A stretch of 64,000 bases of DNA from Candidatus Bathyarchaeota archaeon (GCA_963772455.1 CAVYXJ010000007.1:192001-256000), one strand, 5' to 3'. Shown: positions 8,703-25,017, numbered from the stretch's first letter. Made by a program: numbers and translations. The notes: generated from the sequence alone by a model not told the origin.

Positions 8703-10226
8703 ATGACAAATAAAACCGCAAGAAGAATCCGAATTTTTGACACAACATTAAGAGATGGGGAACAAACCCCTGGAGTTTCTTTAACTGCAGATGATAAGAT
8801 GGAGATTGCACGTCAACTAAGCAAGTTGGGCGTTGACACCATCGAAGCTGGTTTTCCAAGTTCTTCAGAGGGCGAAAAAAAAATCGTCCGAGACATTGCT
8901 AAAGCAGGCTTAACCTCAGAAGTTTGCGCACTATCCCGTGCAACTAGGGGTGACATCGATGCAGCCTTAGATTGCGAAGTTGGCTTAATCCACGTTTTCA
9001 TCCCAACCTCAGATGTCCAGATGAAGTACGCTGTCAATTTGACGCCTGAGCAAGTGCTGGCTGCAACGGTAGACTCGATTTCTTACGTAAAGAAGCATGG
9101 AGTCAAATGCGAATTCTCACCCATGGACGCTACACGCTCAGACATAACTTTCCTAAAGCAAGTCTGTAAAGCCGCACAAGACGCAGGAATGGACAGCCTA
9201 AACGTTCCAGACACCGTCGGCATAATGATTCCCAAAACAACCTTCAAACTAATTGAGGAACTAAAAACCGTAGTCAGCGTCCCAATAAGCACTCACTGCC
9301 ACGACGACTTCGGTTTAGCAGTTGCCAACAGCTTAGCCGCTGTCGAAGCAGGCGCCGACCAAGTACACGTTGCCGTCAACGGCTTAGGTGAACGTGCTGG
9401 CAACGCTTCACTCGAAGAAGTAGTTATGGCACTGCACATGATTTACAAATACAAAACAAACGTAAACTCACGCTTACTCTACAGCACCTCTCGACTGGTT
9501 GCATCATTAACAGGTATTAATGTGCAAGCAAACAAGGCAATTGTTGGCGAGAACGCGTTTGCCCATGAATCAGGTATCCACACCCGAGGAGTAACAGAAA
9601 AACCACTTACCTTCGAACCTATTAACCCAGAATTAGTAGGACGCACAAGAAAATTGGTCGCTGGCAAATTAGCGGGAACCCGAGGTATCAAGGCTGAACT
9701 TGAAGAAATCGGAATTCACCCAACTGAGGAACAACTAAAAGAAATCGTTCAGCGCGTCAAAGATTTAGGCGACAAAGGCAAAATGGTCACAGATGCCGAT
9801 CTGATAGCGTTAACTTCGGCTGTAATGGGTGAAGTAATTGGGGAAGAAAAAATAATCGACTTATGCGACATGGCTGTCGTAACAGGCATCAAAGTTATCC
9901 CAACCGCATCCGTTCGACTAACGCTTAATGGCAAAGAATACGTTGCCGCCGAAACAGGAGTTGGACCTGTAGATGCAGTTTTGAAGGCCATTCAGAAGTT
10001 AACCAGCAGCATAGAAAACATCCGCCTTAGCGAATACCGTCTTGCAGCTATAACTGGAGGTTCAAATGCAGTAGCCGAAGTTATAATAAAAGTCGAAGAT
10101 GAAAAAGGCAACATCGTCTCAGCACGGGCAGCACGAGAAGACATAGTTATGGCAAGCGTTGAAGCAATGATAAATGGTATAAACAAGCTTTTGGTTAAGA
10201 ATCATAAGCAGGGAAACAAAAAGTGA
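8703..10226 (+). CDS. leuA: 2-isopropylmalate synthase
   Basis: [28 protein letters not shown] and C-terminal regulatory domain (GVGPVDA). Confidence 0.88.
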
Positions 10227-11038
10227 CAAATGTAGCCTTCCAAGGCGAACCCGGCGCATACAGCGAGAACGCAGTGTACCAGTTCTTCGGCTCAAATGTG
10301 CAGGTGAAGCCGTGCAGAGACTTCAGAGACGTCTTTGAAAGCGTAAAATGTCAGGTTGTGGAGGCTGGTGTGGTACCAGTTGAGAATTCCCTTGAAGGCA
10401 GTGTTAACCAGAACTACGATTTGTTCTTCAGTTATGACCTCAAAGTGTGTGGCGAAGTCATTGTCAAAGTTGAGCATTGCTTTATCGTTAATCCAGGCAC
10501 AACTTTGGATTCCGTCAAAACCGTTTACTCTCACCCGCAAGCGTTAGCGCAGTGCCGCAGTTTTCTGGAGCACCTAAAATACGAGTTGGTTCCAACTTAT
10601 GACACGGCTGGAAGCGTTAAACTAATCAAAGAACAAAAACTGCTAACCGCGGCAGCCATCGCAAGCGAGAGAGCAGCCGAACTCTATGGCATGGAAATCC
10701 TTGCCCGAGACATCGCTGACAACAAAGAAAATTACACACGCTTCTTCGTACTATCTAAAGAGGATTCGCCGGTAACAGGCAAAGACAAAACCTCAATTAT
10801 CTTCTCAGCCAAACACGAACCAGGCTCACTCTACAAAGCTCTGGGAGAATTCGCCAAACGCAAAATCAACTTAACTCGAATCGAATCAAGACCAACAAAA
10901 AAAACCGCCTGGGAATACAACTTCTACCTAGACTTCGAGGGACACCGAACTGAACAGAAATGTGCCGAAACACTCAAAGCACTGGAAAAATATGCCACAT
11001 TCATCAAAATCTTAGGTTCTTACCCTAAAGCCATCTAA
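10223..11038 (+). CDS. pheA: Prephenate dehydratase
   Basis: FQGEPGAYS, PVENSLEG, SHPQALAQC, NYTRF, ACT domain with IESRP. Confidence 0.96.
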   Translation: MTNVAFQGEPGAYSENAVYQFFGSNVQVKPCRDFRDVFESVKCQVVEAGVVPVENSLEGSVNQNYDLFFSYDLKVCGEVIVKVEHCFIVNPGTTLDSVKTVYSHPQALAQCRSFLEHLKYELVPTYDTAGSVKLIKEQKLLTAAAIASERAAELYGMEILARDIADNKENYTRFFVLSKEDSPVTGKDKTSIIFSAKHEPGSLYKALGEFAKRKINLTRIESRPTKKTAWEYNFYLDFEGHRTEQKCAETLKALEKYATFIKILGSYPKAI

Positions 11039-11103: not shown

Positions 11104-11970
11104 TCAGGATAATTTTGCTGGTTTAGTAGTTTTGATAAATGTGCCTTCGTCAAGTTCGTCATACGCCTTTTCTAATTCTTCTTCAGTATTCATTACAATA
11201 GGTCCTCCCCAAGCCACGGGTTCCTTCAAAGGTTCTCCTGAGACAAATAGAAAGTGAGCACCCTTTTTTGAGCCAATCTTAACTAACTCGCCTTCACTAA
11301 AAACAGCACAATTCCCTAACGTGACTATTTTGTCATGAACTTCTATAGATCCATCGACAACGTATGCAAAGACTGTGTTGTTCCTATTTGTAGCGTGTTC
11401 GAATGTTTTGGCTTCAGCCAGCTCGACATCAAAATATTCTATGTCAATTACAAGGTCACAAACTGGCCCTTCTGTCTCATCGATCTTTCCTGCTATCACT
11501 TTGATTTTTATTCCGTCTTTCTGGATGGTTGGGATTTGTTCTTTTTCGATTCCTCGGTATTTCGGATCAATCATCTTCTTTTTTGCAGGCAAGTTTATCC
11601 ATAATTGAAAGCCCTGCATTAAACCTTCATATTTTCTGGGCATTTCTTGATGAATTATGCCTGAGCCTGCAGTCATCCATTGTAATTCTCCGGATTTGAT
11701 TACACCTTTGTTGCCCATGCTGTCACCGTGAGCAACTTCGCCAGTCCACATGTAAGTGACAGTTTCTATTCCTCTGTGAGGATGCCAAGGGAACCCTTTG
11801 ATGTAATCCTTAGGGTCGTCTGAACCGAAATGGTCAAGAAGCAAAAAAGGGTCAAGAGAAGAGTTTTTGTCGTTGCCTAAAACGCGTTTGAGCCTAACAC
11901 CTGCGCCCTCAATCGTTGGCTGTCTTTCTAAAATCTTTTCCACTTTTCTTTCCATAAAACATCTACCCAT
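11104..11970 (-). CDS. Pirin-family protein
   Basis: DPFLLLDHF, HPHRGIETVTY, WMTAGSGIIHQE, GPIVMNT. Confidence 0.95.
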   Translation of the reverse strand: MGRCFMERKVEKILERQPTIEGAGVRLKRVLGNDKNSSLDPFLLLDHFGSDDPKDYIKGFPWHPHRGIETVTYMWTGEVAHGDSMGNKGVIKSGELQWMTAGSGIIHQEMPRKYEGLMQGFQLWINLPAKKKMIDPKYRGIEKEQIPTIQKDGIKIKVIAGKIDETEGPVCDLVIDIEYFDVELAEAKTFEHATNRNNTVFAYVVDGSIEVHDKIVTLGNCAVFSEGELVKIGSKKGAHFLFVSGEPLKEPVAWGGPIVMNTEEELEKAYDELDEGTFIKTTKPAKLS

Positions 11971-12036
11971 ATTGCTTATGCCTCAAGGACAATATAATTA
12001 TACTGTGAAAAGGAAAAAGCAAGTTTTTTAAAAAAA

Positions 12037-12912
12037 TTATTTCTCTGTAGACTCTAACATTTTGTACATGATGTCATATGAGTCTGCGAAATCGCTGTCA
12101 GCTGCGGATAGCTTCTTCTTTAGCTGTTCCATACGTTCAACGATTGCTTTTTGGTCTTTGTTTTTGATTAAGGCCAGCAGTTCTTGGGCTTTAGCAATGA
12201 ACAAATCCTCGATCTCGCCTAAGTTAGCCAAATTCGTTTGTACGCTTGCGTAGAGGTCTGGGGTTTCCAGCGCTGTTGCTTCAGCTAAGGTGAACAGCAT
12301 TCTATAAGTGGTGCCTGCAACTTTTTTGGTTTCTGGCAGGTTCTTCTGTTCCAAGAGTGTTTCGCATGCTACTAAACCAAGGAAATGCGGCAACCCCAAA
12401 ACGACTGACATTAGTTCGTCGTGCTTTTTTGGAGTCATGACGAATACGTGTGCTTCTTCCTTTTCCAACCAATGCTTGAATTGCTCAGCGAACTCTTGCT
12501 CCTTAGCGTTGGTTGGGGTTAAAACGTATGCTTTGTATTTGACTCCGTTGCTTCCTGGACCAAAAACTGGGTGCGTTCCTAAAACCGTGGCTCCCTTGAT
12601 GTATTGGTGCATAGTTTTGACTGGGGCTTCTTTGATTGAGCAAATATCCATAACAACCTGTCCCTCGTGGAGTAAGGGGCTGATCGCTTTAGCAACTTCT
12701 TCAATGGCGTTTATTGATATACAGAGCAGGATTTGGTCGGCATCTTTGACTGCTTCCTCAAAACTGGTTGTCAAGTCAACTAGTAAGTCTTTTTGCGCCT
12801 CAAGCTTCGCTTTCTTACGGTCAGCTAAAATAACGTCGTAATCTTTGGACATGAAAAATTTTGCGAACCAAACACCCATCTTTCCAGCGCCGATTACGGC
12901 AATCTTCATCAA
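12037..12912 (-). CDS. tyrA: Prephenate/arogenate dehydrogenase
   Basis: GAGKMG Rossmann motif, DICSIK, HPVFGP, HDELMS. Confidence 0.93.
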   Translation of the reverse strand: MMKIAVIGAGKMGVWFAKFFMSKDYDVILADRKKAKLEAQKDLLVDLTTSFEEAVKDADQILLCISINAIEEVAKAISPLLHEGQVVMDICSIKEAPVKTMHQYIKGATVLGTHPVFGPGSNGVKYKAYVLTPTNAKEQEFAEQFKHWLEKEEAHVFVMTPKKHDELMSVVLGLPHFLGLVACETLLEQKNLPETKKVAGTTYRMLFTLAEATALETPDLYASVQTNLANLGEIEDLFIAKAQELLALIKNKDQKAIVERMEQLKKKLSAADSDFADSYDIMYKMLESTEK

Positions 12913-13985
12913 GCTGCCTCACTGATTTTTTCCAACGCGACCTTAATGTCAGCATCTGGAGCAGTCAAGGAGATTCGGAAGTGTTCTCTGTAATCGCCAA
13001 ATGATGTACCTGGAGCAACTGCTACGCCTTTTTCGAGCAGGTCTAGAGTGAATTTTTCAGAGTCTAAGCCGTCAAGTTTGGGGAATATGTAGAAAGGTGC
13101 TTCGGGTTTGGTGAATTTGAAGCCTGCCGCAGAGAGTTTGGTGCTTGCCATATCTGCGCGTTGTTTGTATTTGGCTTTGATGGCGGAAGCGATTTGTTTG
13201 TGGAGTTCTAAGCCTTTGAGTGCAGCGTCTTGGATGAAAACAGGGACATTGTTTATGGTGATTTGGTTTAGTTTGGTTATGTTGTCGATTAAGGGTTTGT
13301 TAGCGATTAAGTAACCGATTCGCCAACCAGTCATTGTGAATGTTTTTGAGAAGCCGTTGCTTAAGATGTGCATGCAGTCTTTGTCGTAATCTAAGATGCT
13401 TTTTGTTTTTGTGAAGGCTATCGTAGCATAGACTTCGTCGGATAATATCGTGATTTTTTTCTTGTTTGCGATTTCTACAATCTTCTCAAGGGTTTCTGCA
13501 TTCATGACTTTGCTTGTGGGGTTGTTGGGGTTGTTGAGTATAATCATGCGTGTATCTTTGTCAATTAATTTTTCCAGATTATCTAAATCGACTTTCCAAT
13601 CGTTTTCAAGCTCAGTTCGCAACAGTTTGGTTTTGGCGCCTAGACTTTTAGCTATTAAATCGTAAGCTGTCCAATAAGGAGTTGGAATAATGACGTTTCC
13701 GCCGTTTCTTAGCATCAAGAACATTGTGGCGAATATGCCCCATTTAGAACCAGGCGTAATAACAACGTTCTCAGCTTTAACTCCATGAACCTGAGCGATT
13801 TTTTGTCTCAGCTTTAACTCGCCATAAGAAGAGGAATACTTGGTTTTACCCGCCTTCATAGATGCGTACGCGGCTTCCACTATTTCAGGCGGGGTAGCTA
13901 AGTCTGGATCTCCAAGGTTTAAGCGGATTATTTTTTTTCCTTCGCTTTCAAGTTTAAGAGCTTTCTCGTTTATCTCGTAGAGCAT
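12909..13985 (-). CDS. Class I/II PLP aminotransferase (probably aromatic)
   Basis: NNPNNPT, SDEVY, SKTFTMTGWRIG; lies between chorismate mutase and tyrA. Confidence 0.92.
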   Translation of the reverse strand: MLYEINEKALKLESEGKKIIRLNLGDPDLATPPEIVEAAYASMKAGKTKYSSSYGELKLRQKIAQVHGVKAENVVITPGSKWGIFATMFLMLRNGGNVIIPTPYWTAYDLIAKSLGAKTKLLRTELENDWKVDLDNLEKLIDKDTRMIILNNPNNPTSKVMNAETLEKIVEIANKKKITILSDEVYATIAFTKTKSILDYDKDCMHILSNGFSKTFTMTGWRIGYLIANKPLIDNITKLNQITINNVPVFIQDAALKGLELHKQIASAIKAKYKQRADMASTKLSAAGFKFTKPEAPFYIFPKLDGLDSEKFTLDLLEKGVAVAPGTSFGDYREHFRISLTAPDADIKVALEKISEAA

Positions 13986-14012
13986 ATCTTTGGACTCTCC
14001 GTTAAGAGCGTT

Positions 14013-14273
14013 TTATTCTTGAACAGCACTGCACATATTAACTATTTCGCGATAAACCGCTTCAACCTGACTTGCATTAAGACCGAGTTTGATACCTTTC
14101 GCACGTATCCTCTTGTAAACCTCGTTCTCCCGTGCAACATCTCGAATTGGTTTGCCCTGCATTTTCTTGGCTAAACCGATTTCCTCACATACCTTTACTC
14201 GTACACACAGTGCCATTAGGATTTGGTCGTCGATTTCATCAATTCTTTGCCTAAGCTTTAGAATTTCAGCCAT
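14013..14273 (-). CDS. Chorismate mutase (AroQ type)
   Basis: LRQRIDEIDDQI...R...IG..K...IRD..RE. Confidence 0.93.
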   Translation of the reverse strand: MAEILKLRQRIDEIDDQILMALCVRVKVCEEIGLAKKMQGKPIRDVARENEVYKRIRAKGIKLGLNASQVEAVYREIVNMCSAVQE

Positions 14274-14275
14274 TG

Positions 14276-15382
14276 TTACTGCCTCTTTAGAATACGCGGT
14301 ATAAACCCTGCTCTAATCATATGGTCAGCTAAAGTTATTGCAACTGCGGCTTCAATTGCGGGTACAGCTTTAGGAACAACGCAAGGATCATGTCTGCCCT
14401 TTATGCTTAAGGCTGCATTTTCCATTTTCTCTAGATTGACTGTTTTCTGTTCTTTTGCGATGGAAGGAGTTGGTTTAATCGCCACTCGAATCATAACGGG
14501 CATGCCGTTAGATAAACCTCCTAAAACGCCTCCAGCATTATCGGTTGAAGTTACAACTTGTCCCTTTTGAATTTGATAAGCGTCATTGTTCTGCGATCCT
14601 TTCACCAACGCAGCTTCAAAACCCATTCCAAACTCGACTCCTTTAACGGCTGGAACCGAAAAAATAGATTTAGCCAAATCTGCATCTAACGAATCAAACA
14701 AAGGCTCACCAACCCCAACGGGTATACCGAGCACAAGACACTCAATTATTCCGCCAAGACTGTCGCCTTCTTTTTTAGCGTTCACTATAGCTTCCTCCAT
14801 TCGCTCTCCACAAATTAAGTCAGGGCACCTTGTTGATGCGGCGTAACGGTTTTTGCGTATTTCGTCGGAAGTGAATTTTTTATCAGTCTTAACCTGCCCA
14901 ATCGCCGAAGTATAAGCCAACACATCAACATCAAAGCGACTGAGCATTTTTTTAGCGACTGTGCCAGCCATAATAATTGCTACGGTAACTCTACCTGAGA
15001 AACGTCCTCCACCACGATAATCGTTCAAGCCACCAAATTTGATTCGTGCTGGGTAATCTGAGTGCCCAGGTCTTGGCAGACCTTTCATCTCTTCGTAATC
15101 GCTTGAGTCTGTTTCCTTGTTTTCAACCAACACGGATATTGGAGCCCCAGTTGTTAATCCGTTAAAAATTCCTGAAAGAACCTTAACAATATCTTTCTCA
15201 ATACGTGCAGAAACAATCTTTAACTCAGCTGGGATCCTGCGGTCAAGTTCTATTTGGAAATCACTTTCAGAAAGAGGCAAACCTGATGGACACCCATCCA
15301 CAACTACGCCAACGACTTTGCCGTGACTCTCGCCAAAAGTGGTAACTGTAAATTCTTTACCGATCGAATTTCCCGCCAACAA
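14276..15382 (-). CDS. aroC: Chorismate synthase
   Basis: FGESHG, PRPGHSD, GGGRFSGR, GRHDPC. Confidence 0.97.
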   Translation of the reverse strand: MLAGNSIGKEFTVTTFGESHGKVVGVVVDGCPSGLPLSESDFQIELDRRIPAELKIVSARIEKDIVKVLSGIFNGLTTGAPISVLVENKETDSSDYEEMKGLPRPGHSDYPARIKFGGLNDYRGGGRFSGRVTVAIIMAGTVAKKMLSRFDVDVLAYTSAIGQVKTDKKFTSDEIRKNRYAASTRCPDLICGERMEEAIVNAKKEGDSLGGIIECLVLGIPVGVGEPLFDSLDADLAKSIFSVPAVKGVEFGMGFEAALVKGSQNNDAYQIQKGQVVTSTDNAGGVLGGLSNGMPVMIRVAIKPTPSIAKEQKTVNLEKMENAALSIKGRHDPCVVPKAVPAIEAAVAITLADHMIRAGFIPRILKRQ

Positions 15383-16655
15383 CCTCAGCTCCTATTTGTC
15401 TTAGATGAGTGAAGAACTGCGGATAAGACTTTCTGACGCAATCAGCGTTTTGGATTGTAGTTTGTCCTTCTGCCCCTAAAGCGGCAACTGCGCAAGCCAT
15501 TGCGATTCGGTGGTCGTTATGGGGATCTATTATAGCGCCGTGTAAAGGTGAACCTCCTTCTATGATTAAGCCATCGTTCTTGATGGTAATTTGTGCACCC
15601 ATCTTTTTTAACTCAAGGTAAAGCGATTCGAGACGGTCAGATTCTTTAAGTTTAAGCCTACTTGCACCAAAAATATGGGATGTACCCTTTGCATAACACA
15701 TCATAACTGCTATAGCTGGAACAAGATCAGGAATGTGCTTTGCATCAACTTCACCTGTTCTAAGTAAACTTCCGGAACCTTCAATCTCAACGTTGTCCGC
15801 GCAAACTTGTCCATTAACGCCCATATGTTTTAGGATACCTATTATCGCCTTGTCTCCTTGAAGGCTATCATAATCAAGGTTATTTATTTGGACTTTAGAC
15901 TGAGTTATAGCTGCTCCTGCAAGAAGAAAAGCGGATGAGGAGAAGTCGCCTGGAACCTTGCTGTCAGCCGAAGTGTAGATTTGGTTTGCTGGAATATGTA
16001 TGTGATTTTCATGTGTAGGCACTTTAACTCCATGATTGGCAAGAACAGCTTCAGTCATTTTAACGTAACCTTCAGACTCCAACGGAGAAGACAGCATTAT
16101 TTCACTGTCCACTTGAGCCTTTGGGCATGCAAACATCAAACCTGAAATAAATTGTGAGCTCACGTTACCCAGAATTGATGTTTCACCTCCAGCAATGCCG
16201 CCACCCTCAACGAAAACCGCGTCTTTATTGCCGACATTACCGATATGGGTTTTAGCACCAAGTTCGGCGAGGCTTGTCAGTAATGGTTCCATGGGTCGCT
16301 TTTCAATTGAACCATTAAAAACTAGAATCGAAGACCCTTTTGCCAGGGCAGCTACTGGAACCATGAAACGCAATGTAGCTCCTGATTCACCACAGTCGAT
16401 TGGCTCTTTTGCAGCTTTAAGTGTATTAGGTCCTTTGATAATCCAGCAGCCCTCTATTTCATTCACTTCTGCACCCAAAGCAGTTACGGCGCGAAGCGTT
16501 GCTTGGGTATCACCGGAGAAAAGAGGAGCAGAAACTTTAGATAACCCACTAGATAATGCAGCGGCAATAACCATCCTCTGGGTAAAAGACTTGGACGACG
16601 GTGCACAAACTTGACCACTTAGCTTCACCGTTTTTTTAACAATTACATCCGCCAT
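15357..16655 (-). CDS. aroA: EPSP synthase
   Basis: SKSFTQR, GESGATLRF, SSQFISG, KESDRL, DHRIAMA, KSYPQF. Confidence 0.97.
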   Translation of the reverse strand: MADVIVKKTVKLSGQVCAPSSKSFTQRMVIAAALSSGLSKVSAPLFSGDTQATLRAVTALGAEVNEIEGCWIIKGPNTLKAAKEPIDCGESGATLRFMVPVAALAKGSSILVFNGSIEKRPMEPLLTSLAELGAKTHIGNVGNKDAVFVEGGGIAGGETSILGNVSSQFISGLMFACPKAQVDSEIMLSSPLESEGYVKMTEAVLANHGVKVPTHENHIHIPANQIYTSADSKVPGDFSSSAFLLAGAAITQSKVQINNLDYDSLQGDKAIIGILKHMGVNGQVCADNVEIEGSGSLLRTGEVDAKHIPDLVPAIAVMMCYAKGTSHIFGASRLKLKESDRLESLYLELKKMGAQITIKNDGLIIEGGSPLHGAIIDPHNDHRIAMACAVAALGAEGQTTIQNADCVRKSYPQFFTHLRQIGAEVVGGKFDR

Positions 16656-16658
16656 TAG

Positions 16659-17528
16659 TTAGAGCACCTTAGCTTTCTCACAATTCAATTTAGCCTGCAA
16701 TATTTCACCGTCATATTTCTGCAAAGCAGCTTTCACTAAATCAACTTTATCCTTTGAAACCACAGCTGTAACCGCTGGTCCTTTGCCACACAGCCCAGCA
16801 GCTATCGCGCCAGCAACTAATGCATCGATAGCGATTGCAGTATTGAGGTTGGAAGCTGAAGAATAAATTAATCCATTAAGTGTTAATGCCTCCCAGATTT
16901 TGCCATCTAAAACTTTCTCGAAGGCGATTTCCACGAGAGGTTTGAGCGTTTTGAGCCTATTTACGTTGCAGTCGATTGTGTAAGCTTTTTGGGGGGGCAC
17001 ATGGAAAAGCACATCTAAATCTTCAGGCAATGGATATTGTTTGATTATTTCTTGTTTCAAGTTGTCAGTGATTTGTAATCCGCCAAAGTAAGAGGCGCAA
17101 GCATCGTCAAATGCGCCTGTTACGGTAACTTTCGCGTCAAAAGCTGCTTCAACACCTAACTTTATGATGTCTATATCATCAAGAGTTTTTCCCAGTGCCT
17201 TTGTGGTTGCTAGAGCTGTTGCGTTTGCAGCTACACTACTGCTCTTAAGCCCTCGTGCAATGGGAATGTTGGATATGGTTTTTATTTTTACTCCAAAACT
17301 CTTCTCTAAATTAAATCTTCTTAGGACTCTTGTAGCAGTTTTTTCTATAAGAAGCGTACTTTCTTTTGGGTCAGAAACTATCTCAGCTCTAATAACGCCT
17401 GCTTCATCGGTTATGTTAACTTCAGCTCTAGTCCACAAGTCAATCCCAAACGCAGCACCCTTTCCCAACGCAATTGCGTTAACGATTGTTGCTGCCCCAT
17501 GAGCAATAGCTACTGCTTTACCTGTCAA
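16659..17528 (-). CDS. aroK: Archaeal GHMP-type shikimate kinase
   Basis: GAATIVNAIA, PIARGLKSSS, TGAFDDACAS. Confidence 0.95.
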   Translation of the reverse strand: MTGKAVAIAHGAATIVNAIALGKGAAFGIDLWTRAEVNITDEAGVIRAEIVSDPKESTLLIEKTATRVLRRFNLEKSFGVKIKTISNIPIARGLKSSSVAANATALATTKALGKTLDDIDIIKLGVEAAFDAKVTVTGAFDDACASYFGGLQITDNLKQEIIKQYPLPEDLDVLFHVPPQKAYTIDCNVNRLKTLKPLVEIAFEKVLDGKIWEALTLNGLIYSSASNLNTAIAIDALVAGAIAAGLCGKGPAVTAVVSKDKVDLVKAALQKYDGEILQAKLNCEKAKVL

Positions 17529-17530
17529 TT

Positions 17531-18397
17531 TTACACCTTCGTTAAATGATTTAGCGCTGCCTGCCTCATAACATCAACAGGTGCAGACTTACCCGTCCAG
17601 ATTTCAAAAGAAGCCGCACCTTGATAGATTAACATCTCAACACCACTAACCACTTTCGCACCAGCCGCCTTCGCGTCTTTAGCCAGTCTAGTTTCAATTG
17701 GGTTATAGACTATGTCCATGACAGCTAAATTTGGTCGTAAAAGTTTAGGCGCTACTGGGGTTTCCTCACCTTTCGGTTTCATCCCCACTGATGTAGCATT
17801 GATTAAAACGTCTGAGTCTTGAAGATTTTGTTGTATTTCTTTCGGCGAAAGTGATCCTGAAACAATTTTCTTATTTGCGATCTTCTCAAGAAGTTTGGCT
17901 AAGTCTTGAGCTGGTTTTAGGGAGCGATTCAACACTGCCAACTCGTCAGCTTCTTTAGCCATTGTGTATGCTATGGCTCTAGCTGCGCCTCCTGCACCTA
18001 ACAATAGAACCTTTCGCCCCTTCAATTCAACCCCGTTTTCTCGGAGAGCTTTCAATGCACCAACTCCATCGGTGTTGAAACCAAAGAGTTTGTTATCTCT
18101 GTTTAAGATAGTATTAACTGAATTGATAATTTGAGCAGATAAGTCGGTTCTATCAAGAAACTTTAAAATTGGAGTTTTATGAGGCATTGTTACATTTAAG
18201 CCGCGTATGTTTAGAGCTCGCATGCCGTTGACTGCATTTTCAATTTCTGCAGGCTTCACCTTGAAAGCTAAAAACACATAGTCGAGGTTTAGGGCATTGA
18301 ATGCTGCGTTGTGCATGATTGGGCTTAATGTGTGTTCTATAGGATCCCCGATAACCCCGCAAACCCTTGTTTTTCCAGATATACCCATATCATCCAT
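17531..18397 (-). CDS. aroE: Shikimate dehydrogenase
   Basis: SPIMHN, NVTMPHK, NTDGVG, GAGGAAR, NATSVG. Confidence 0.96.
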   Translation of the reverse strand: MDDMGISGKTRVCGVIGDPIEHTLSPIMHNAAFNALNLDYVFLAFKVKPAEIENAVNGMRALNIRGLNVTMPHKTPILKFLDRTDLSAQIINSVNTILNRDNKLFGFNTDGVGALKALRENGVELKGRKVLLLGAGGAARAIAYTMAKEADELAVLNRSLKPAQDLAKLLEKIANKKIVSGSLSPKEIQQNLQDSDVLINATSVGMKPKGEETPVAPKLLRPNLAVMDIVYNPIETRLAKDAKAAGAKVVSGVEMLIYQGAASFEIWTGKSAPVDVMRQAALNHLTKV

Positions 18398-19073
18398 TCC
18401 CCAACAGAGAATAAGCAGTCTTCATTTCATTTATGCCCATTTGTCCCGCAGCAGTTTCACTGCCATCGCCGAGTGAGGCAAAAGTGAAAAAAGCCCCAAA
18501 CAAAGGCGATAGAACTCTCGAAACTCTGCCATGTTCACCCATACAGAAACAAACGATCTTAGCCTTGCTGGAAGAAAGCGAAATAAAGCTCAAAACAGGC
18601 AAGTTGTCCGCTATCTGTAAAGCAGTTGTCACAATCTTACAGACGAAAGCGCCGCTGGCAAGTTCTTCATCTAGAATCGCCGTCATCGCTAAAACGTTGA
18701 GTGCACCGTCGAACTTGTGGTAGGAAACAATGGGTTTCACCCCTAACATTTTAATCTGACTGATAATTTCTTTGTGTTTTGGACATGATAAATCTATATC
18801 AACATATTCAAAGCCGCTTTTAGCCGCATTCAAAAGAGTTTGTTGACGTTCAGATTCTATTCCAGAAAAAAATCCTTTTTCGCTTAGGAGTCTGTTTGTG
18901 GCAATTAAGGGAACTTTCGTGCTTGCTGACAATTCGGACAAATTGCGGGATGTCTCAAGGCAGTCAAGCCTAACTTCTATAATGTCAGCTTTGGTTAACT
19001 CTGCTTTTTCAATGAGGTTTAAAGCTTCACTGTTGTTTTTTGGGAGAATCGAGACACAGATCCTCGGGGTCAC
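18390..19073 (-). CDS. aroD: Type I 3-dehydroquinate dehydratase
   Basis: EVRLD, SYH, CKIVT, MGEHGRVSR, AAGQ. Confidence 0.92.
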   Translation of the reverse strand: MTPRICVSILPKNNSEALNLIEKAELTKADIIEVRLDCLETSRNLSELSASTKVPLIATNRLLSEKGFFSGIESERQQTLLNAAKSGFEYVDIDLSCPKHKEIISQIKMLGVKPIVSYHKFDGALNVLAMTAILDEELASGAFVCKIVTTALQIADNLPVLSFISLSSSKAKIVCFCMGEHGRVSRVLSPLFGAFFTFASLGDGSETAAGQMGINEMKTAYSLLGNG

Positions 19074-20110
19074 TTTTCAATCACCGTTTCTTCAGGTACA
19101 GATATGCCAAAGTGCCTTCCTCCCTTCGCAGCTATGTGCACTAATACTTCGTCGTTTGGCTTTAATTCTGTAACTGGTTTTGATGCTTGGGGAGTGACTA
19201 GGCGGATAGTTTCAGCGTTCTGCAAAATGGTTTTAATTTTGGTGTCGTCTGCTTGGGCTTCAATGAGTATTAGGGGGCGAAACTCGATTTTGGATCTTCC
19301 CACGTTTGTCAACCTAACTTTGCCTTCTCGGTTAACAATTAAGACCTCATCTCCTGCCTTGAGCTCAGAGAGGTACCTAGTGCTCTGTGTTGATGTCAAA
19401 GTGTAATGTGAGGCAGGTCCAGCGTTAACCCTGAAAGGTCGAGATTGCACATAGGGATTCTCATTGACTTCAGCTTCAACAAGGAAAAAACCCGCTGATT
19501 GACAACCTACAAGCATGCCTTCTCCTGGAACCATCAAATCAATAGTGTCAACGCAAACTCTCGCGCCCGAACCAATGGGCTTAATTGACAAAATCTTCGC
19601 TGGCTTTATCACCATTTTTTGGACTTGTGAGTTAATGAATTTAATTGTTTTTTCCAGTTCGTTTGGGCTTCCAGTTTTAAGAAGCACACCATCAGTTCCA
19701 AGTTCAAGCGCTTCCAAAACCACCTTCGCATCTTCAGAGGTTATGACTTCAGCGATTAAGGAGCTTTTTCCTCTACCTTTCGCAATCAAGTTTTCAAGCG
19801 GAATCACTCGCCAATCGATGCAATTTATAATCACATAGTCAACGCCGAGATCTCCGGCTTTAGCGGCTTTGTTTTCATCCTCTTTGCCCTGAATAGTAAC
19901 TCTAAGGGCAGTTTTTTTTCCTTCTTTCTTTAATTGAGCAATCTTTTTCTCGTTTAAATCAGTTATGAAAACTATATCGAGTTTGCCGGTCCTATTGCTA
20001 GCTTGGTCCCCTTCAAGGATTACATCCACGTTTTCATGTGAAATGCTAAGCAAACTCTCTTTTTCTTGAACTGAAGCTTTTGGATCAATTTCTATCCAGA
20101 GTTCCTTCAA
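19070..20110 (-). CDS. 3-dehydroquinate synthase II (archaeal AroB')
   Basis: WRVIPLENLIA, RVCVDT, RPFRVNAG, LQNAETIRL, RHFG. Confidence 0.95.
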   Translation of the reverse strand: MKELWIEIDPKASVQEKESLLSISHENVDVILEGDQASNRTGKLDIVFITDLNEKKIAQLKKEGKKTALRVTIQGKEDENKAAKAGDLGVDYVIINCIDWRVIPLENLIAKGRGKSSLIAEVITSEDAKVVLEALELGTDGVLLKTGSPNELEKTIKFINSQVQKMVIKPAKILSIKPIGSGARVCVDTIDLMVPGEGMLVGCQSAGFFLVEAEVNENPYVQSRPFRVNAGPASHYTLTSTQSTRYLSELKAGDEVLIVNREGKVRLTNVGRSKIEFRPLILIEAQADDTKIKTILQNAETIRLVTPQASKPVTELKPNDEVLVHIAAKGGRHFGISVPEETVIEK

Positions 20111-20898
20111 CGCTTTTCACCCAGGAGTCTAAGCGCTTGCTCCACCGATAAGTTTTCGTGAACTATAGCTGCGAGCGCTTTGACGATTTGAGTTGGGTTT
20201 TCGCATTGAAACACATTTCGTCCTATCGAAAGTCCAGCGGCTCCAGCTTTAAGTGAATCATATGTCGTTTGGAGGATTTCTTGGTTAGTTTTGCATTTTG
20301 GTCCACCAGCGATGACCACTGGAACAGGGCAGCTTTCAACTACAGTTTTGAAGGTTTCAATGTCGCCTGTATAGTTGGTTTTGATAATGTCTGCGCCAAG
20401 TTCTGCACCGATTCTTGCTGCGTGCGCCACCACTTCGGGTGAGTGTTCGTTTTGGATTTTTGGTCCACGCGGATACATCATTGCAAGCAATGGCAGACCG
20501 AAGAGATCACATTCTTCGGAGACTTTACCGAGATTTTGAAGCATTTTGTCTTCGTCTTGGGCTCCAACGTTAACGTGTACAGAGACTGCGTCTGCGCCGA
20601 TGCGTATTGCTTCTTGAACGGAACAGACTTGTACTTTGGCGTTTAAGTTAGGACTAAGATTTGACATGCCTGACAACATAACAATTAGTCCTGCTTGTCC
20701 CGTATCGATGCGTTTAGCTATGCCTTTGTGGACGAGGATAGCGTCTGCATTTCCTTTCACTAACTTTGTGGTTATTTCCTGCATGTTGGTTATGCCTTGG
20801 ATAGGTCCGATTGTAACACCATGATCCATGGGCACGATTACTGTGCGGTTGTCTTGCTGCATGATTCTTCTTAATCTACGGGTTTTTCCATTATTCAT
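20107..20898 (-). CDS. 2-amino-3,7-dideoxy-D-threo-hept-6-ulosonate (ADH) synthase (AroA')
   Basis: Class I aldolase: PMDHG, AMMYPRG, ELGADIIKT, AGGPK, GRNVFQ; adjacent to DHQ synthase II. Confidence 0.93.
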   Translation of the reverse strand: MNNGKTRRLRRIMQQDNRTVIVPMDHGVTIGPIQGITNMQEITTKLVKGNADAILVHKGIAKRIDTGQAGLIVMLSGMSNLSPNLNAKVQVCSVQEAIRIGADAVSVHVNVGAQDEDKMLQNLGKVSEECDLFGLPLLAMMYPRGPKIQNEHSPEVVAHAARIGAELGADIIKTNYTGDIETFKTVVESCPVPVVIAGGPKCKTNQEILQTTYDSLKAGAAGLSIGRNVFQCENPTQIVKALAAIVHENLSVEQALRLLGEKR

Positions 20899-20910
20899 CG
20901 TTCTTCCACC

Positions 20911-22146
20911 TTAACGTGTTTTAAGTGAGTTTTTAATTAGTTTTAATGCTTTTTCTCTCTCATTCCAATCCACAAACAGCAGAATACTTGAGGTGATGGT
21001 TAGTATTCCTGAGATGTTTATTCCGTTGACTCGCAGATCTTCGCTTATTCTGCCAATTATACCATGGGTTTCTTCCAATCCCACCCCACTGGTTTGTATA
21101 AACACCAAATCTTTTTTGACTGCCATAGCAATAGTTTCTTTGTTGCTTGTAGTTATTTTGTGAATTTGATTGAAAAGGACTTCGATATTTTTTTCTTGCG
21201 GGACATAGAGAATAATGGAATTCGTATTCATTGACATGCCTAAAAGCATCGAGTTTTCCTTTACTTTCTCAACCATTTCAGTAATGACTTGGGGGTTTGC
21301 GGAGATACCTTTTCCAATCACAGTTATTTCCGAGACTGGCGTTTGATGAGCTATTTCTGCGCCCAATTCTGAAATTAATTCACCCTTTATCAAAGTGCCT
21401 TCACTGCTTAAGTCGCCTTGCGAATTGCTTATGACTTTAACATCGATGTTTTTTGGTTTGTACTTAAGGGCTTTACTGTGGATAAACTTGGCTCCTGAAT
21501 CCGCTAGACCCACAAGTGTGTTAACGTCGATTTCTTTAAGCCTCTGAGGATTCGTAATGATTTTTGGGTCACCCGACATGATGCCATCAGCATCTGTAAC
21601 TAAAACAACTTGATCCGCACATAACGCTTCAGCTAAAATGAATGCGGTAGTATCGCTTCCACCTCTGCCTAAAGTTGTGACTTTGCCTTCTTTGGTTTTA
21701 CCAAGAAACCCTGCTATGACGGGTATAGTGCCTTGTTCAACTATTGGGAGGATGCATTCTTTGATGTTTTTTTCACATTCTTTAAGAATTGGGTTGGCGT
21801 TTTGAAATGCTGCATCTGTAATTATTGGCCAGTTACAATCGATTGGGTCGAAGTAACAGGAGTTTGCTCCATTGCTTTTTAGGGCAGCTGAAAATATTCG
21901 CACGCTGGTCCGTTCACCCATGGAGAGAATATCATCTAAATCGTGTTTCTCTAATTTCCCGTTCGAAGTATTTTTGGCTGTAGACATGAGAACATCGGTT
22001 GTTTTACCCATAGCGGAAACTACAACAGCGATCTTGATACCTTTCTTGGATTCGTTAACCACAGCAACTACTGCTTTTAGGAGTCGTTCGTGATCGGCAA
22101 GGCTAGAGCCACCGAATTTTACAACAATTCTTTTGTTATCTGCCAT
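20911..22146 (-). CDS. Aspartate kinase with ACT domains, first gene of the aromatic operon
   Basis: VKFGGSS, VVSAMGKTTD, LGRGGSDTTA. Confidence 0.93.
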   Translation of the reverse strand: MADNKRIVVKFGGSSLADHERLLKAVVAVVNESKKGIKIAVVVSAMGKTTDVLMSTAKNTSNGKLEKHDLDDILSMGERTSVRIFSAALKSNGANSCYFDPIDCNWPIITDAAFQNANPILKECEKNIKECILPIVEQGTIPVIAGFLGKTKEGKVTTLGRGGSDTTAFILAEALCADQVVLVTDADGIMSGDPKIITNPQRLKEIDVNTLVGLADSGAKFIHSKALKYKPKNIDVKVISNSQGDLSSEGTLIKGELISELGAEIAHQTPVSEITVIGKGISANPQVITEMVEKVKENSMLLGMSMNTNSIILYVPQEKNIEVLFNQIHKITTSNKETIAMAVKKDLVFIQTSGVGLEETHGIIGRISEDLRVNGINISGILTITSSILLFVDWNEREKALKLIKNSLKTR

Positions 22147-22164
22147 CTAGTACACCCGTATTTC

Positions 22165-22200
22165 GCCCAGAACCGCTCAAAAAAGTTTTCAGTTCTGGGC
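22165..22200 (-). terminator. Leader hairpin with U6 tract in the loop (candidate attenuator)
   Basis: GCCCAGAACUG / CGGUUCUGGGC stem (11 bp, one G-U), loop AAAACUUUUUUGAG; starts at the base after the leader stop codon. Confidence 0.6.
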
Positions 22201-22287
22201 CTAAGGAAAATGGTAATAATAAAAATAGTAGTCGAAGCTAAGGAACGGTGATAAATTAGCGCCGTTTTTACTTTTGAAATGTGACAT
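22201..22287 (-). CDS. Phe/Tyr-rich leader peptide (28 aa) of the aromatic amino-acid operon
   Basis: MSHFKSKNGANLSPFLSFDYYFYYYHFP; 5 Phe and 5 Tyr, including six consecutive codons YYFYYY; lies between the promoter and the first gene. Confidence 0.8.
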   Translation of the reverse strand: MSHFKSKNGANLSPFLSFDYYFYYYHFP

Positions 22288-22324
22288 TTGCTTCGAACCT
22301 GTTCAATCAGTCACATCCCAAAAA

Positions 22325-22337
22325 ATATAAGCGTTTC
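22325..22337 (-). promoter_or_regulatory. BRE/TATA promoter of the aromatic operon
   Basis: GAAACGC-TTATAT on the minus strand, about 40 nt upstream of the leader ATG. Confidence 0.65.
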
Positions 22338-22367
22338 GGATTCAGGCTATTGTTTAATTGTTCAATA

Positions 22368-23078
22368 CTACTCTGGCGCCTCTACTTTGATGATCTGCGG
22401 AATTTTCCCAGCAGTCCCAACTTGCCCCTTATATAATATAAGCACTCCTTCAACACCTTCAATCGACAAACCTCTTTTGATGCCCGCATTAATCCCAACC
22501 TGTCCATCATCGCCTTTCACTACATTACAAACGGCTGTAGCGGCTGCATCTGACAAAGCAGCATTTTTGCAGAAAACTATTGCTGCTTCGGCATCCCCAA
22601 AACTAAAAGCGTGACTGAATCGTCCTGAACTAGTGGCAATCCCAATTGGAAATTCAGTTAGCCTAAACCCGAAGCGTCTTGAGAGAGGTTCCTCTCCTGC
22701 CGCAACTGCTACATTAATTGGCTGGTTTGAGAATGCTGAAATTTCGCCGCCATTCTCCACAACCGCCACTTCGCAACCCACCCGTTTCATATCCTCAACG
22801 GCTAAATCTGCTAAAGCTCCTGCAACGGCCGCCATTGGTCCAACATTTGCTGTTTGGGCTGCTATCGCCATTAAATTTGCTACAAGAGGCTTTTCTGGCA
22901 AAGCAATTGGCTCAAAGGTATAAAGAAACTTTGGATTAGCCCTAACATAAAGCTCCAATTCTTGACGGTTCCGCTTGATGGATGCTATAGCCGAGTCGAT
23001 ACCTTGTTGTCTATCAGAAAGAATTGTGCATTGAGTCTCTTTTAGGGAAAAACTTTCTTTAAAAAGTTGACTTGTCAC
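22368..23078 (-). CDS. UPF0280 / ApbE-like protein
   Basis: VGPMAAVAGA, ENGGEI, ATSSG, SFGDA, DAAATA; clustered with the homocysteine genes. Confidence 0.9.
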   Translation of the reverse strand: MTSQLFKESFSLKETQCTILSDRQQGIDSAIASIKRNRQELELYVRANPKFLYTFEPIALPEKPLVANLMAIAAQTANVGPMAAVAGALADLAVEDMKRVGCEVAVVENGGEISAFSNQPINVAVAAGEEPLSRRFGFRLTEFPIGIATSSGRFSHAFSFGDAEAAIVFCKNAALSDAAATAVCNVVKGDDGQVGINAGIKRGLSIEGVEGVLILYKGQVGTAGKIPQIIKVEAPE

Positions 23079-23514: not shown

Positions 23515-25017
23515 TTACCGTCCTAACAATCTGGAAACGTCCTCTGAAGTAATTATACCCAAAACTTTTCGTTCAATATCAATCACGGGCAAAGCAGAGA
23601 TGTTGTTTTGAGCCATTCGTTTAGAAGCAATTTCGAGTGGTTCATCGGGTTTTGCAGTTACTACATTGTGGGATTCTATGTCTGCCAACGATTTTTTGCT
23701 TTCAGCCATGGCGCGAGTGATGTCCCATGAAGTCACTATTCCTTTTAGTTTGCCAGTTTCATCCACAACCACGATGTGGTTGACTGATTTGGTGACTATG
23801 CGTTTTGCAATGGCTTGTATTTCCTCAGCCTCAGTGCATGTTACAGCAGGATGCATTACGTTATAAACGAATGGGATTTCTTCGGTCTGCCGCATTGGTT
23901 TGAAGATTGTGTTAGTTGGCAACCTCTCTACAGGTGAAGTCAAAAGGAATTTGCCCTCATCAATCCATGATTTGAGGGTTTGGGAAACTTTCTTCGCCAT
24001 CTTTAGGCTTGAGAGCGAACTGACTCGGATTTTTTTTCCGTTGACTGTTATGGAGCCAGATTTGAGTTCTTTGTAGCTGACTTGCCCGAACTTGGGGCGG
24101 TCACGTCGTGGGACACTGTAATCCACTATGTCAGTTAGAATGTCTTTATCTTGAATCGCCGTTTTCTTCGCTAAACCCTCATTTAATATAGGGATCGGAA
24201 CACCTAAACCAACATATAGGGATGTCCCATATCCCGTGAAGGCCGCGCCTTGAAGAAATTCTGGCGACATTTTTTTTGCATCACCCTTTACCATGAGTGT
24301 TCCATTTAGGTTCTTGGGGCTATGCTGCGTTCCCTCCCCGATAATGTATCCTTGAGCTCCCCCAAGAAATATGCGGGTTCCCATTCCCATGGTCTCGTAG
24401 TCTGGATCGTTCATGAGGGGGTTAAGTTCTCCAGCGCCCGAGAATGTTGCATTACGGAAACGGGGCAATAGTTTGCTCATATATGTGTAGATTATTTCGT
24501 CGCTGCTATTGACGGCGCAGTTGTATCGTTGGTAGCAATTGCGGAAATTTAGCAGGTAAAATTGGTTTAAATCATCTTTAGTTAAAGTTGTTTTAACTGA
24601 AGTTCTGGGGTAACAATCTGTGCCATATGCTGTGGCTCTAAGTTCTACTTCATTTCCAGCCACTAAGTCTTGAATAACATGTCCTCCGCCATACTCAAAG
24701 GGCAACTTCTCAGACATGTTCGTGGCACCAATAAACAGGTCTACTGCAGCCCCCGGATGGCATACTTCTACGTTGTTAATCCACGCCTTTTCAATCTTAA
24801 TCGGCGGATCTGAGTGCCCAAGGTTTACAACTGCACCAGATGAACACATAGCCCCAAAAGTTCCTGTGGTAACTACATCTACTTCTTTGAAGGCAACTTC
24901 AACACCGCTGCTCTCAACTAGCTTCTTCATTTCCTCTGCAGTCAAAACTTGAGCGTCGCCCTTGCAGATTTTCTGGTTAATCTCATCTATTGTCCGAGTC
25001 TTAGCTTGGTTAGACAA
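23515..25017 (-). CDS. Homocysteine biosynthesis protein (DUF39 plus CBS pair; aspartate-semialdehyde sulfurtransferase type)
   Basis: DVVTTGTFGAMCSSG, YGGGHVI, YGTDCYPR, RNCYQRY; C-terminal CBS domains. Confidence 0.92.
   Translation of the reverse strand: MSNQAKTRTIDEINQKICKGDAQVLTAEEMKKLVESSGVEVAFKEVDVVTTGTFGAMCSSGAVVNLGHSDPPIKIEKAWINNVEVCHPGAAVDLFIGATNMSEKLPFEYGGGHVIQDLVAGNEVELRATAYGTDCYPRTSVKTTLTKDDLNQFYLLNFRNCYQRYNCAVNSSDEIIYTYMSKLLPRFRNATFSGAGELNPLMNDPDYETMGMGTRIFLGGAQGYIIGEGTQHSPKNLNGTLMVKGDAKKMSPEFLQGAAFTGYGTSLYVGLGVPIPILNEGLAKKTAIQDKDILTDIVDYSVPRRDRPKFGQVSYKELKSGSITVNGKKIRVSSLSSLKMAKKVSQTLKSWIDEGKFLLTSPVERLPTNTIFKPMRQTEEIPFVYNVMHPAVTCTEAEEIQAIAKRIVTKSVNHIVVVDETGKLKGIVTSWDITRAMAESKKSLADIESHNVVTAKPDEPLEIASKRMAQNNISALPVIDIERKVLGIITSEDVSRLLGR

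Follow-up and report, generated by a model that had tools for sequence, protein, structure and literature searches.

A Conserved Phe/Tyr-Rich Leader Open Reading Frame and an RNA Hairpin at Its Stop Codon Head the Aromatic Operon of Many Bathyarchaeia: A Candidate Amino-Acid-Sensing Switch

Introduction

In bacteria, the sensing of charged tRNA by leader peptides is textbook knowledge. We analyzed a candidate for such a leader in an archaeon, located in a 64,000-nucleotide (nt) stretch of the genome of a Candidatus Bathyarchaeota archaeon (GCA_963772455.1, CAVYXJ010000007.1:192001-256000). This whole stretch is referred to below as the window, and positions are counted from its first letter unless a contig is named. 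The element consists of a short open reading frame (ORF) rich in Phe and Tyr codons, which lies on the minus strand ahead of an operon for aromatic amino acid biosynthesis, and of an RNA hairpin (P2) that begins where the ORF ends.

The Leader ORF and the Operon That It Precedes

A sequence-only reading of the window had described an ORF of 28 codons and a stop at 22287..22201, in which eight of the final 11 codons specify Phe or Tyr, six of them consecutively, and none specifies Trp. The same reading had placed a B recognition element (BRE) and TATA box upstream of the ORF and a 54-nt gap between the ORF and the first gene, and had assigned to the downstream operon 11 genes from aspartokinase to TyrA with no trp genes among them. 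Re-reading of the sequence bore out the ORF, its codon content, the promoter and the gap, and Pfam analysis of the genes agreed with the composition of the operon (Table 1). The leader peptide terminates in SFDYYFYYYHFP, and its stop codon is TAG (22203..22201, minus strand). A BRE/TATA-like sequence, CGAAACGCTTATATTTT, is found ~40 nt 5' of the leader ATG, and most loci of the same genus carry CGAAA(C/T)GCTTATATTTT ~40-45 nt 5' of theirs; judged by promoter spacing, transcription would start near 22300.

The first gene of the operon encodes an amino-acid kinase with an ACT domain (aspartokinase, ATG at 22146, 411 amino acids). It is followed in order by a DeoC-type aldolase, 3-dehydroquinate (DHQ) synthase II, DHQ dehydratase I (DHQase I), shikimate dehydrogenase, a GHMP kinase, 5-enolpyruvylshikimate-3-phosphate (EPSP) synthase, chorismate synthase, chorismate mutase, an aminotransferase, and prephenate dehydrogenase. 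The operon encodes a shikimate pathway of the 6-deoxy-5-ketofructose-1-phosphate (DKFP) type. The archaeal route through 2-amino-3,7-dideoxy-D-threo-hept-6-ulosonate (ADH) synthase and DHQ synthase II draws on aspartate semialdehyde, which accounts for the aspartokinase at the head of the operon.

By itself, the Phe/Tyr composition of the leader is only moderately rare, as 45 six-frame stretches with 8/11 Phe/Tyr codons and no stop occur in the whole 2.45-Mb genome (39.7% GC). Among the 2092 small ATG-initiated ORFs upstream of genes, the window's leader is the only one to reach 8/11. The decisive argument against chance is the conservation of the ORF in relatives, described below. A scan of 21900..22700 on both strands with Rfam 15 (E-value ≤10) returned five matches, none of them on the element and all far below gathering scores. 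Exact look-up of three leader peptides among ~15 billion proteins found none of the three, a homology search not having been run because the peptides are too short; these ORFs thus appear never to have been called as genes.

Table 1. Coordinates of the leader, its RNA features and the operon in the window.
Feature	Position	Strand	Description or basis
Leader ORF	22201..22287	-	28 codons + TAG, peptide MSHFKSKNGANLSPFLSFDYYFYYYHFP; ATG at 22287
Aromatic codon run, presumed hunger codons	22207..22236	-	F17 to F27, 8/11 F/Y
BRE/TATA-like promoter element CGAAACGC-TTATATTT	about 22322..22338	-	Sequence reading
P1 5' strand UCGAAGC	22290..22296	-	Short 5' untranslated region (UTR), 2 nt before leader ATG; RNAalifold
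P1 3' strand GCUUCGA	22232..22238	-	Inside codons Ser16-Phe17-Asp18; RNAalifold
P2 hairpin	22165..22200	-	GCCCAGAAC (22200..22192), 17-nt loop, GUUCUGGGC (22173..22165); -18.3 kcal/mol
T6 run in P2 loop, candidate archaeal terminator signal	22179..22184	-	T-run statistics; function inferred
Shine-Dalgarno-like GGGUG of aspartokinase gene	22153..22157	-	7 nt 3' of P2
11-gene operon, aspartokinase to prephenate dehydrogenase (TyrA)	12037..22146	-	Pfam
T7 run after TyrA stop	12036..12030	-	Sequence

Conservation of the Leader in Relatives

We searched 41 genomes, the window's own included, for the aspartokinase and kept loci with at least 52% identity. A leader precedes the kinase in all 27 such loci, of which 24 belong to the same genus (counting the window's own) and three to other families; these leaders comprise 24-29 codons from the proximal ATG, carry a Phe/Tyr-rich tail, and end 53-86 nt before the kinase. 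The three aspartokinase paralogues (<41% identity) are all without a leader and are preceded instead by a longer ORF. A further 17 Bathyarchaeia loci (at least 49% identity) all possess the leader, which starts with ATG in 16 and with GTG in the remaining one (L045). All public records encoding the kinase carry the label Bathyarchaeota or Bathyarchaeia, and some that of Candidatus Bathycorpusculum.

For a class-wide sample we used DHQ synthase II, which is present in 63 of 121 genomes of the class, and examined 40 of these loci for small ORFs with at least six Phe, Tyr or Trp codons among the last 12. Such ORFs make up 17 of 1294 on the sense strand versus 0 of 1423 on the antisense strand. 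Fifteen of the 17 were accepted as leaders, and two (in L147 and L149), far from any gene start, were dropped. In 20 loci from other classes of the phylum, the corresponding numbers are 7/708 sense versus 2/780 antisense, and leaders are found in five (L158, L164, L165, L166 and L168), each 38-67 nt before a gene. Where the gene that follows the leader was checked with Pfam (nine cases from both samples), it encodes aspartokinase in eight and aspartate-semialdehyde dehydrogenase in one. Because related genomes are not independent, the locus counts describe breadth and carry no statistic; as far as sequence comparison can tell, the leader is spread across Bathyarchaeia and, beyond that class, occurs in at least four families from elsewhere in the phylum. 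The design in the other classes is the same, with an aromatic-tailed ORF and a hairpin followed by aspartokinase (by aspartate-semialdehyde dehydrogenase in L168), as exemplified by MSRSLTRQRTMRMFGYFYFYYFGP and the GGGGACC...GGUCCUC stem after it.

Leader tails of GC-rich relatives read ...PFFGSFGYFGYRG and ...PFFGRFGYFGY, those of other families ...YYYYYYYCFF and FFDFFYYYFYFE, and further examples are ...NPYYYYYYYCFF, MFFDFFYYYFYFE and ...MFGYFYFYYFGP. Within the window's family the motif SF(D/E)Y.FYY is well conserved, and a C-terminal Pro is frequent among leaders of the window's genus. One leader of another family (L116) contains seven consecutive Tyr codons.

The Leader Frame Is Kept as Codons

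Thirty-seven family-type sequences were anchored on two non-coding landmarks, a 5' UTR motif and P2, and the frame between them was compared. The first ATG occurs 1-8 nt after the UTR motif, and its distance to the SFD codons is a multiple of three in 37/37 sequences (14-16 codons). A single in-frame stop adjoins P2 in 35/37, and in the two exceptions it precedes P2 by 3 and 5 nt. Stops are present in 20/37 sequences in frame +1 and in 35/37 in frame +2. The N-terminal part of the peptide varies freely, forming 20 clusters below 60% identity, and is always open and in frame; the shuffle-based probability of an open frame averages 0.42 per cluster, with a product over the 20 clusters of 2.8e-8.

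Across 56 non-identical leaders, Phe, Tyr or Trp occupy 427 of the 672 positions in the last 12 codons (63.5%), as compared to 7.8% for Phe plus Tyr in the genes of the window's genome. GC-rich relatives keep these residues with different DNA, which excludes a merely T-rich promoter or terminator. The sequence-only reading had named a Phe/Tyr-rich ORF conserved over varying DNA as the comparative check of its proposal, and relatives do retain the frame and the Phe/Tyr content while their DNA and N-terminal residues differ. We infer that the ORF is translated, and regard it as a conserved putative Phe/Tyr sensor.

A Hairpin Adjoins the Leader Stop Codon

The most conserved partner of the leader ORF is P2, a feature missing from the sequence-only reading. 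In the window, P2 begins at the first base after the leader stop codon. A hairpin with a folding free energy (ΔG) of at most -11 begins 0-5 nt after the stop in 55/56 leaders, versus 25/389 ordinary gene stops of the window's genome. Within the family, the stem varies only by sense-strand wobble or, in L117 and L037, by compensatory pairs; the stems of other families at this place are unrelated to it, e.g., GCUUCAAAACCUA/UAGGUUUUGAAGC and GGGGACCAG/CUGGUCCUC. The distance between the arms ranges from 12 to about 33 nt across leaders. This variable spacing, taken together with the wobble and compensatory pattern, favours an RNA structure over a protein operator. We also considered P2 or its arms as a repeated operator and ruled this out, since the complete hairpin occurs once in the genome and the single arms, with 19 occurrences each, are scattered.

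The 3' end of P2 lies ~4-8 nt before a ribosome-binding site of the GGGTG, GGAGG or GGGGG type. In several other families (L113, L116 (family f14), L127, L047 and L025/L128), U4-U6 comes immediately after the stop-abutting hairpin, with GGAGG next. A same-genus variant (L022/L035) has a leader that stops two codons early (...FYYYY-stop), with AAUUAG between stop and P2 and a stop-to-hairpin spacing of 5 nt instead of 0.

Tests for Competing Helices

The RNAalifold consensus of the 37 sequences contains no conserved helix besides P2 and P1, the latter joining the short 5' UTR to the start of the aromatic run. All seven P1 pairs are canonical in 36-37 of the 37 sequences, and their variation is restricted to wobble (U-A to U-G in six, A-U to G-U in six). 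Other lineages form different helices between the start region and the tail, such as one of 12 bp in L047. Over the 56 leaders, a P1-like helix scores a mean z of -1.18, with 10/56 below -2, which lends moderate support in these folding models to a P1-like helix as a general feature.

Complementarity was measured as duplex energy relative to shuffled sequences. None was detected between the P2 5' arm and the ORF (mean z -0.47, 2/56 below -2), between the P2 3' arm and the 60 nt that follow it (mean z +0.39, 1/56 below -2), or between the aromatic tail and the ribosome-binding site (mean z +0.27, 2/56 below -2). The accessibility of the binding site was modelled for three ribosome positions in 41 aspartokinase-anchored loci, for which the aspartokinase start is only approximate in distant cases, and showed no consistent shift except in L047. 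In that locus the modelled accessibility falls from 0.52 for free RNA to 0.08 when a ribosome sits at the stop and is 0.56 when the ribosome stalls, as a masked 5' arm leaves the 3' arm free to pair with the binding site. The fold of the whole leader in the window is unremarkable (z -1.31), and no U-run follows P2 in the window or its genus, where the longest T-run within 12 nt 3' of P2 is 0-1.

The sequence-only reading had proposed that ribosome stalling on Phe/Tyr codons controls read-through into the operon. Of this proposal, a conserved Phe/Tyr leader ORF tied to the operon stands, and control of read-through by stalling is a candidate mechanism. The defining features of bacterial pheL, hisL and thrL attenuators, mutually exclusive pairings and, in the window, a hairpin plus U-run terminator, were looked for and not found. 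With neither competing helices nor a U-run after P2, the window's element does not belong to the trpL/pheL class, and with no sequestration of the binding site by the aromatic tract it does not belong to the ermC/poly-Cys class. The design thus reads as a two-part one, a sensor ORF and a stop-abutting hairpin, and not as an attenuator of the trpL/pheL type.

T-Runs, the Termination Factor and RNA Data

The loop of P2 encloses a T6 run that lies 16 nt 3' of the leader stop. In the window's genome, runs of at least six Ts occur in 24% of the 0-60-nt regions after stops, in 2.8% of the 30-nt regions before starts, and in 3.3% of mid-gene stretches, and are thus ~8 times commoner after stops than before starts. 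The T-runs after genes have no upstream hairpins, and T-run termination without a hairpin is also described for other archaea in the available portion of PMC8716108. Among the family-type sequences, 33/37 have a run of at least four Ts inside the hairpin (hand count).

An orthologue of the termination factor FttA/aCPSF1 is encoded in the genome (908 bits). In PMC11616081, an FttA terminator comprises RNA from -1 to -36 that is U-rich at -30..-36 and has U at -23, and mutual exclusion of ribosome and FttA on the elongation complex is hypothesised there. If that spacing is applied to an RNA 3' end located 3 nt before the aspartokinase ATG, -23 falls on U29 of the P2 3' arm and -30..-36 on the T6 run (hand count). 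By the same count, a ribosome halted at the leader stop would reach to a point just upstream of the U29/T6 stretch.

One metatranscriptome run contained 5% of the sampled words and yielded seven contigs from relatives at 80% likeness. One of these RNA-library contigs (22088..22236) connects the start of aspartokinase through P2 with the leader tail, with DNA carry-over possible. It is weakly compatible with read-through transcripts in a relative, and shows no ends, strand or level. The contigs provide no cover upstream of 22252 and are uninformative on the start site.

A Proposed Two-State Switch Set by the Ribosome at the Leader Stop

The positions of the aromatic codons relative to P2 suggest how the two parts might be connected. 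Among the 56 leaders, the frequency of aromatic codons is 0.20 at the last codon (-1), 0.86 at -2 and 0.95 at -5, and the last aromatic codon starts at least 9 nt before P2 in 49/56 and exactly 9 nt before it in 40. When a stop codon occupies the A site, a ribosome pulls the following ~9 nt into its mRNA channel; with the A site two or more codons farther upstream, that stretch stays out of its reach. In the window's leader, the ~9 nt after the stop are the whole 5' arm of P2. Hence, the depletion of aromatic codons at -1 and the distance of at least 9 nt to P2 imply that stalled ribosomes should leave P2 folded, and that only completed translation melts it. As the ORF and a single hairpin are the only conserved parts, the switch must lie in ribosome occupancy of the P2 5' arm, and as no alternative pairings are conserved it should have two states. 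If a stalled ribosome leaves P2 folded, then for a biosynthetic operon the folded hairpin must represent the "on" state.

We therefore consider it probable that the element is a translated regulatory leader that acts together with P2 as a two-state Phe/Tyr switch, with folded P2 turning the operon on; as its output we favour termination of transcription by FttA when P2 is melted. In this model, the supply of charged tRNA-Phe and tRNA-Tyr would set the time that the ribosome needs to finish the leader ORF. When Phe and Tyr are scarce, the ribosome would be held in the aromatic run, P2 would remain folded, and the operon would be expressed; the folded hairpin would hide the T6 run and the U-containing 3' arm from FttA/aCPSF1, so that transcription continues into the operon. 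When Phe and Tyr are ample, a ribosome that arrives at the stop would take the 5' arm into its channel and melt P2, the exposed U-rich RNA would become open to cleavage and termination, and transcripts would end before the aspartokinase gene. A bolder claim can be attached to this model, namely that archaea possess attenuation with a logic of its own, in which P2 is an anti-terminator melted by the completing ribosome to expose a U-tract to FttA/aCPSF1, and that the element is the first amino-acid-sensing leader of the archaea, old and widespread. We put this forward as a possibility that we rather doubt in its full extent.

Alternative Explanations

The closest alternative keeps the same sensor ORF and reverses the sign of the hairpin. 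In that scheme the output is translational, as folded P2, situated 4-8 nt from the binding site, hinders initiation at aspartokinase or, where a U-run follows, acts as a terminator; starved ribosomes on the last aromatic codons hold P2 open and the operon on. The presence of an aromatic codon within three codons of the stop in 56/56 leaders fits this scheme, as do the tight placement of P2 before the binding site and the L047 model, in which masking of the 5' arm frees the 3' arm to pair with the binding site and translational effects are possible; poly-Cys upstream ORFs of mycobacteria act at translation, as reported in 10.1101/834739. However, position -1 is depleted of aromatic codons relative to -2, and a ribosome on a last aromatic codon that starts 9 nt or more from P2, as in most leaders, would hardly open it. 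The first stall would in any case occur at the earliest hungry codon, 20-30 nt from P2. The binding site is moreover outside P2, its accessibility does not shift consistently in the modelled loci, and the aromatic tail is not complementary to it. We judge an inhibitory P2 unlikely, in its translational as in its terminator form. A classical attenuator of the pheL/trpL type would combine an intrinsic terminator with competing 1:2, 2:3 and 3:4 helices. In its favour, cognate codons do fill a leader ORF at the head of a biosynthetic operon, and one locus (L044) has a 9-bp match between its F-F-S codons and the P2 5' arm (z -2.6). The window's leader ends in ...HFP-stop, which resembles the end of the E. 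coli pheL peptide. Against this stand the duplex scores of both P2 arms, which are at the level of shuffled sequences, the RNAalifold consensus of P1 and P2 only, and the window's P2 with no U-run behind it in a genome whose terminators are T-runs that lack hairpins. For the window's lineage the classical design appears already largely refuted, and we give it hardly any credence.

It could also be that the ORF gives rise to a small aromatic-rich protein that has its own function, or that the region is untranslated T/A-rich promoter or operator DNA with an incidentally open frame. The T/A-rich tail (TTTTTATTATTA) does look like a TATA box, P2 is a palindrome at the DNA level, and the motif SF(D/E)Y.FYY shows good conservation in the family. 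However, GC-rich relatives keep a Phe/Tyr peptide in DNA that is not TATA-like, the frame is preserved with indels in steps of three, and the N-terminal half is unconstrained. The spacing of the P2 arms, which varies up to about 33 nt, and the sense-strand wobble or compensatory nature of its substitutions speak for RNA and not for an operator. None of the three peptides looked up falls in a protein cluster, and the element has no Rfam match. Both forms of this explanation are very improbable.

Several observations weigh against the two-state switch that we favour. P2 folds only after the T-run has been transcribed and can have no effect on termination at the T-run itself; the model consequently needs factor-dependent or delayed termination. 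Four of the 37 family-type loops contain no run of at least four Ts (hand count). Where a U-run follows the hairpin (L113, L116, L127, L047 and L025), the arrangement looks like that of a bacterial terminator. Simple coupling logic would then predict the wrong sign, off in starvation. The modelled effect in L047 is translational, and the output may differ between lineages. The loci share phylogeny, so that their counts overstate independence, and under the Phe/Tyr/Trp criterion 24 of the 40 class-wide DHQ synthase II loci gave no hit. Within the window's own genome, the composition scan of the 2092 upstream small ORFs revealed no convincing second amino-acid leader. The trp operon of that genome (contig C2:2763.., from an anthranilate-synthase-like first gene to trpB and trpA) has no leader either: its 53-nt upstream gap is without Trp codons and holds as its only ORF the three-codon MSK, hence there is no Trp leader in the genome. 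Finally, the RNA run, which consists of relatives' contigs, gives neither ends nor levels.

Neighbouring Genes and Other Small ORFs

Upstream of the leader promoter lies an ORF of 236 amino acids with no Pfam match (22368..23078, minus strand), and the next gene upstream of it (23515..25017, minus strand) encodes a protein with homocysteine-biosynthesis (HcyBio) and CBS domains. At the other end of the operon, a pirin-family gene (11104..11970, minus strand) lies 3' of the T7 run on the same strand and is probably a separate transcription unit. A gene for prephenate dehydratase with an ACT domain (10223..11038, plus strand) stands outside the operon and is not under the leader. Its start is overlapped by 4 nt by a LeuA/homocitrate-synthase-like gene (8703..10226, plus strand), so that the enzyme of the Phe branch is paired with a LeuA-like gene; the pair (8703..11038, plus strand) is convergent to the aromatic operon.

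In a structure-first scan of the genome, 41 of 2125 small ORFs have a stop-abutting hairpin, and an amino-acid bias is present only in the window's leader. A Thr/Ile-rich ORF upstream of C7:185813, where the next protein was read, from its translation only, as OB-fold/RPA-like, was dropped as a candidate. Three identical small ORFs of 39 codons (MIAAFATRKPRVQIPPGPL...) are located at C1:10098, C4:23944 and C20:80962, and a similar gene lies 121 nt downstream of each. Stop-interrupted matches to the aCPSF1 model also occur on contigs C1, C4 and C20 at other coordinates, and the two observations together suggest a repeated element.

Comparison with Known Systems

TnaC and the fungal arginine attenuator peptide sense a free amino acid through a specific nascent-chain sequence, and a ribosome held at or near the stop of the upstream ORF decides downstream expression. 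The leader described here is similar in that a ribosome at the leader stop is proposed to be decisive, and the C-terminal Pro that is frequent in the window's genus adds to the likeness. Unlike in those systems, only composition is conserved across families, which points to sensing of codons, i.e., of tRNA.

In the bacterial attenuators pheL-pheA, trpL, hisL and thrL (PMC3082878), a short upstream ORF carries regulatory codons for what its operon finally makes. They share with the leader in the window runs of 6-10 cognate codons, and presumably the reading of ribosome position through RNA structure. Apart from its archaeal host, the leader differs from them in that a single stop-abutting hairpin replaces the competing 1:2, 2:3 and 3:4 helices, the U-run of the window is inside the hairpin loop and not after the hairpin, and Phe and Tyr codons are mixed in one leader. 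The poly-Cys short ORFs of mycobacteria, to go by the accessible part of 10.1101/834739, are likewise unannotated sensor ORFs that head a biosynthetic operon and rely on stalling in a cognate tract without a classical terminator. There, the downstream ribosome-binding site is sequestered by a structure, whose formation the ribosome blocks when it stalls (10.1101/834739, same part). Here, in contrast, the aromatic tract and the binding site show no complementarity, P2 does not include that site, and the mRNA has a short leader.

On the side of termination, the T6 run after the leader stop, the FttA orthologue and the hairpin-less T-run terminators of the genome are all in keeping with U-tract termination by FttA/aCPSF1 as described in the available portions of PMC8716108 and PMC11616081, and the spacing of the U residues fits the published -23 and -30..-36 (PMC11616081; hand count). 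A ribosome-controlled hairpin or gating by an amino acid is not described in those portions of PMC8716108 and PMC11616081, and the link to FttA is one that we propose.

A full-text literature search, with subscription-only papers and supplementary files outside its scope, found no archaeal amino-acid leader peptide or ribosome-mediated attenuator. In the parts covered, archaeal ribosome profiling (Ribo-seq) papers contain only candidate upstream ORFs and small 5'-UTR ORFs "reminiscent" of leader peptides, and the term leader peptide elsewhere denotes leaders of the bacteriocin type. The element thus looks like the first amino-acid-sensing leader peptide in archaea. If the model is correct, it would give a physiological meaning to the archaeal coupling between transcription and translation and supply a natural cis-element with which to study how archaeal termination through FttA and U-tracts is regulated. 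The presence of the leader would also mark an operon-head aspartokinase or aspartate-semialdehyde dehydrogenase as dedicated to aromatic biosynthesis. Being short, portable and conserved in many uncultured lineages, the element lends itself to reporter assays in tractable archaea. Its ORF and one hairpin would constitute a simpler, two-part solution to a problem that bacteria solve with four competing segments. Relative to the known systems, the sensing principle is familiar; the novelty lies in the two-part architecture and in the domain of life, with an output that probably differs.

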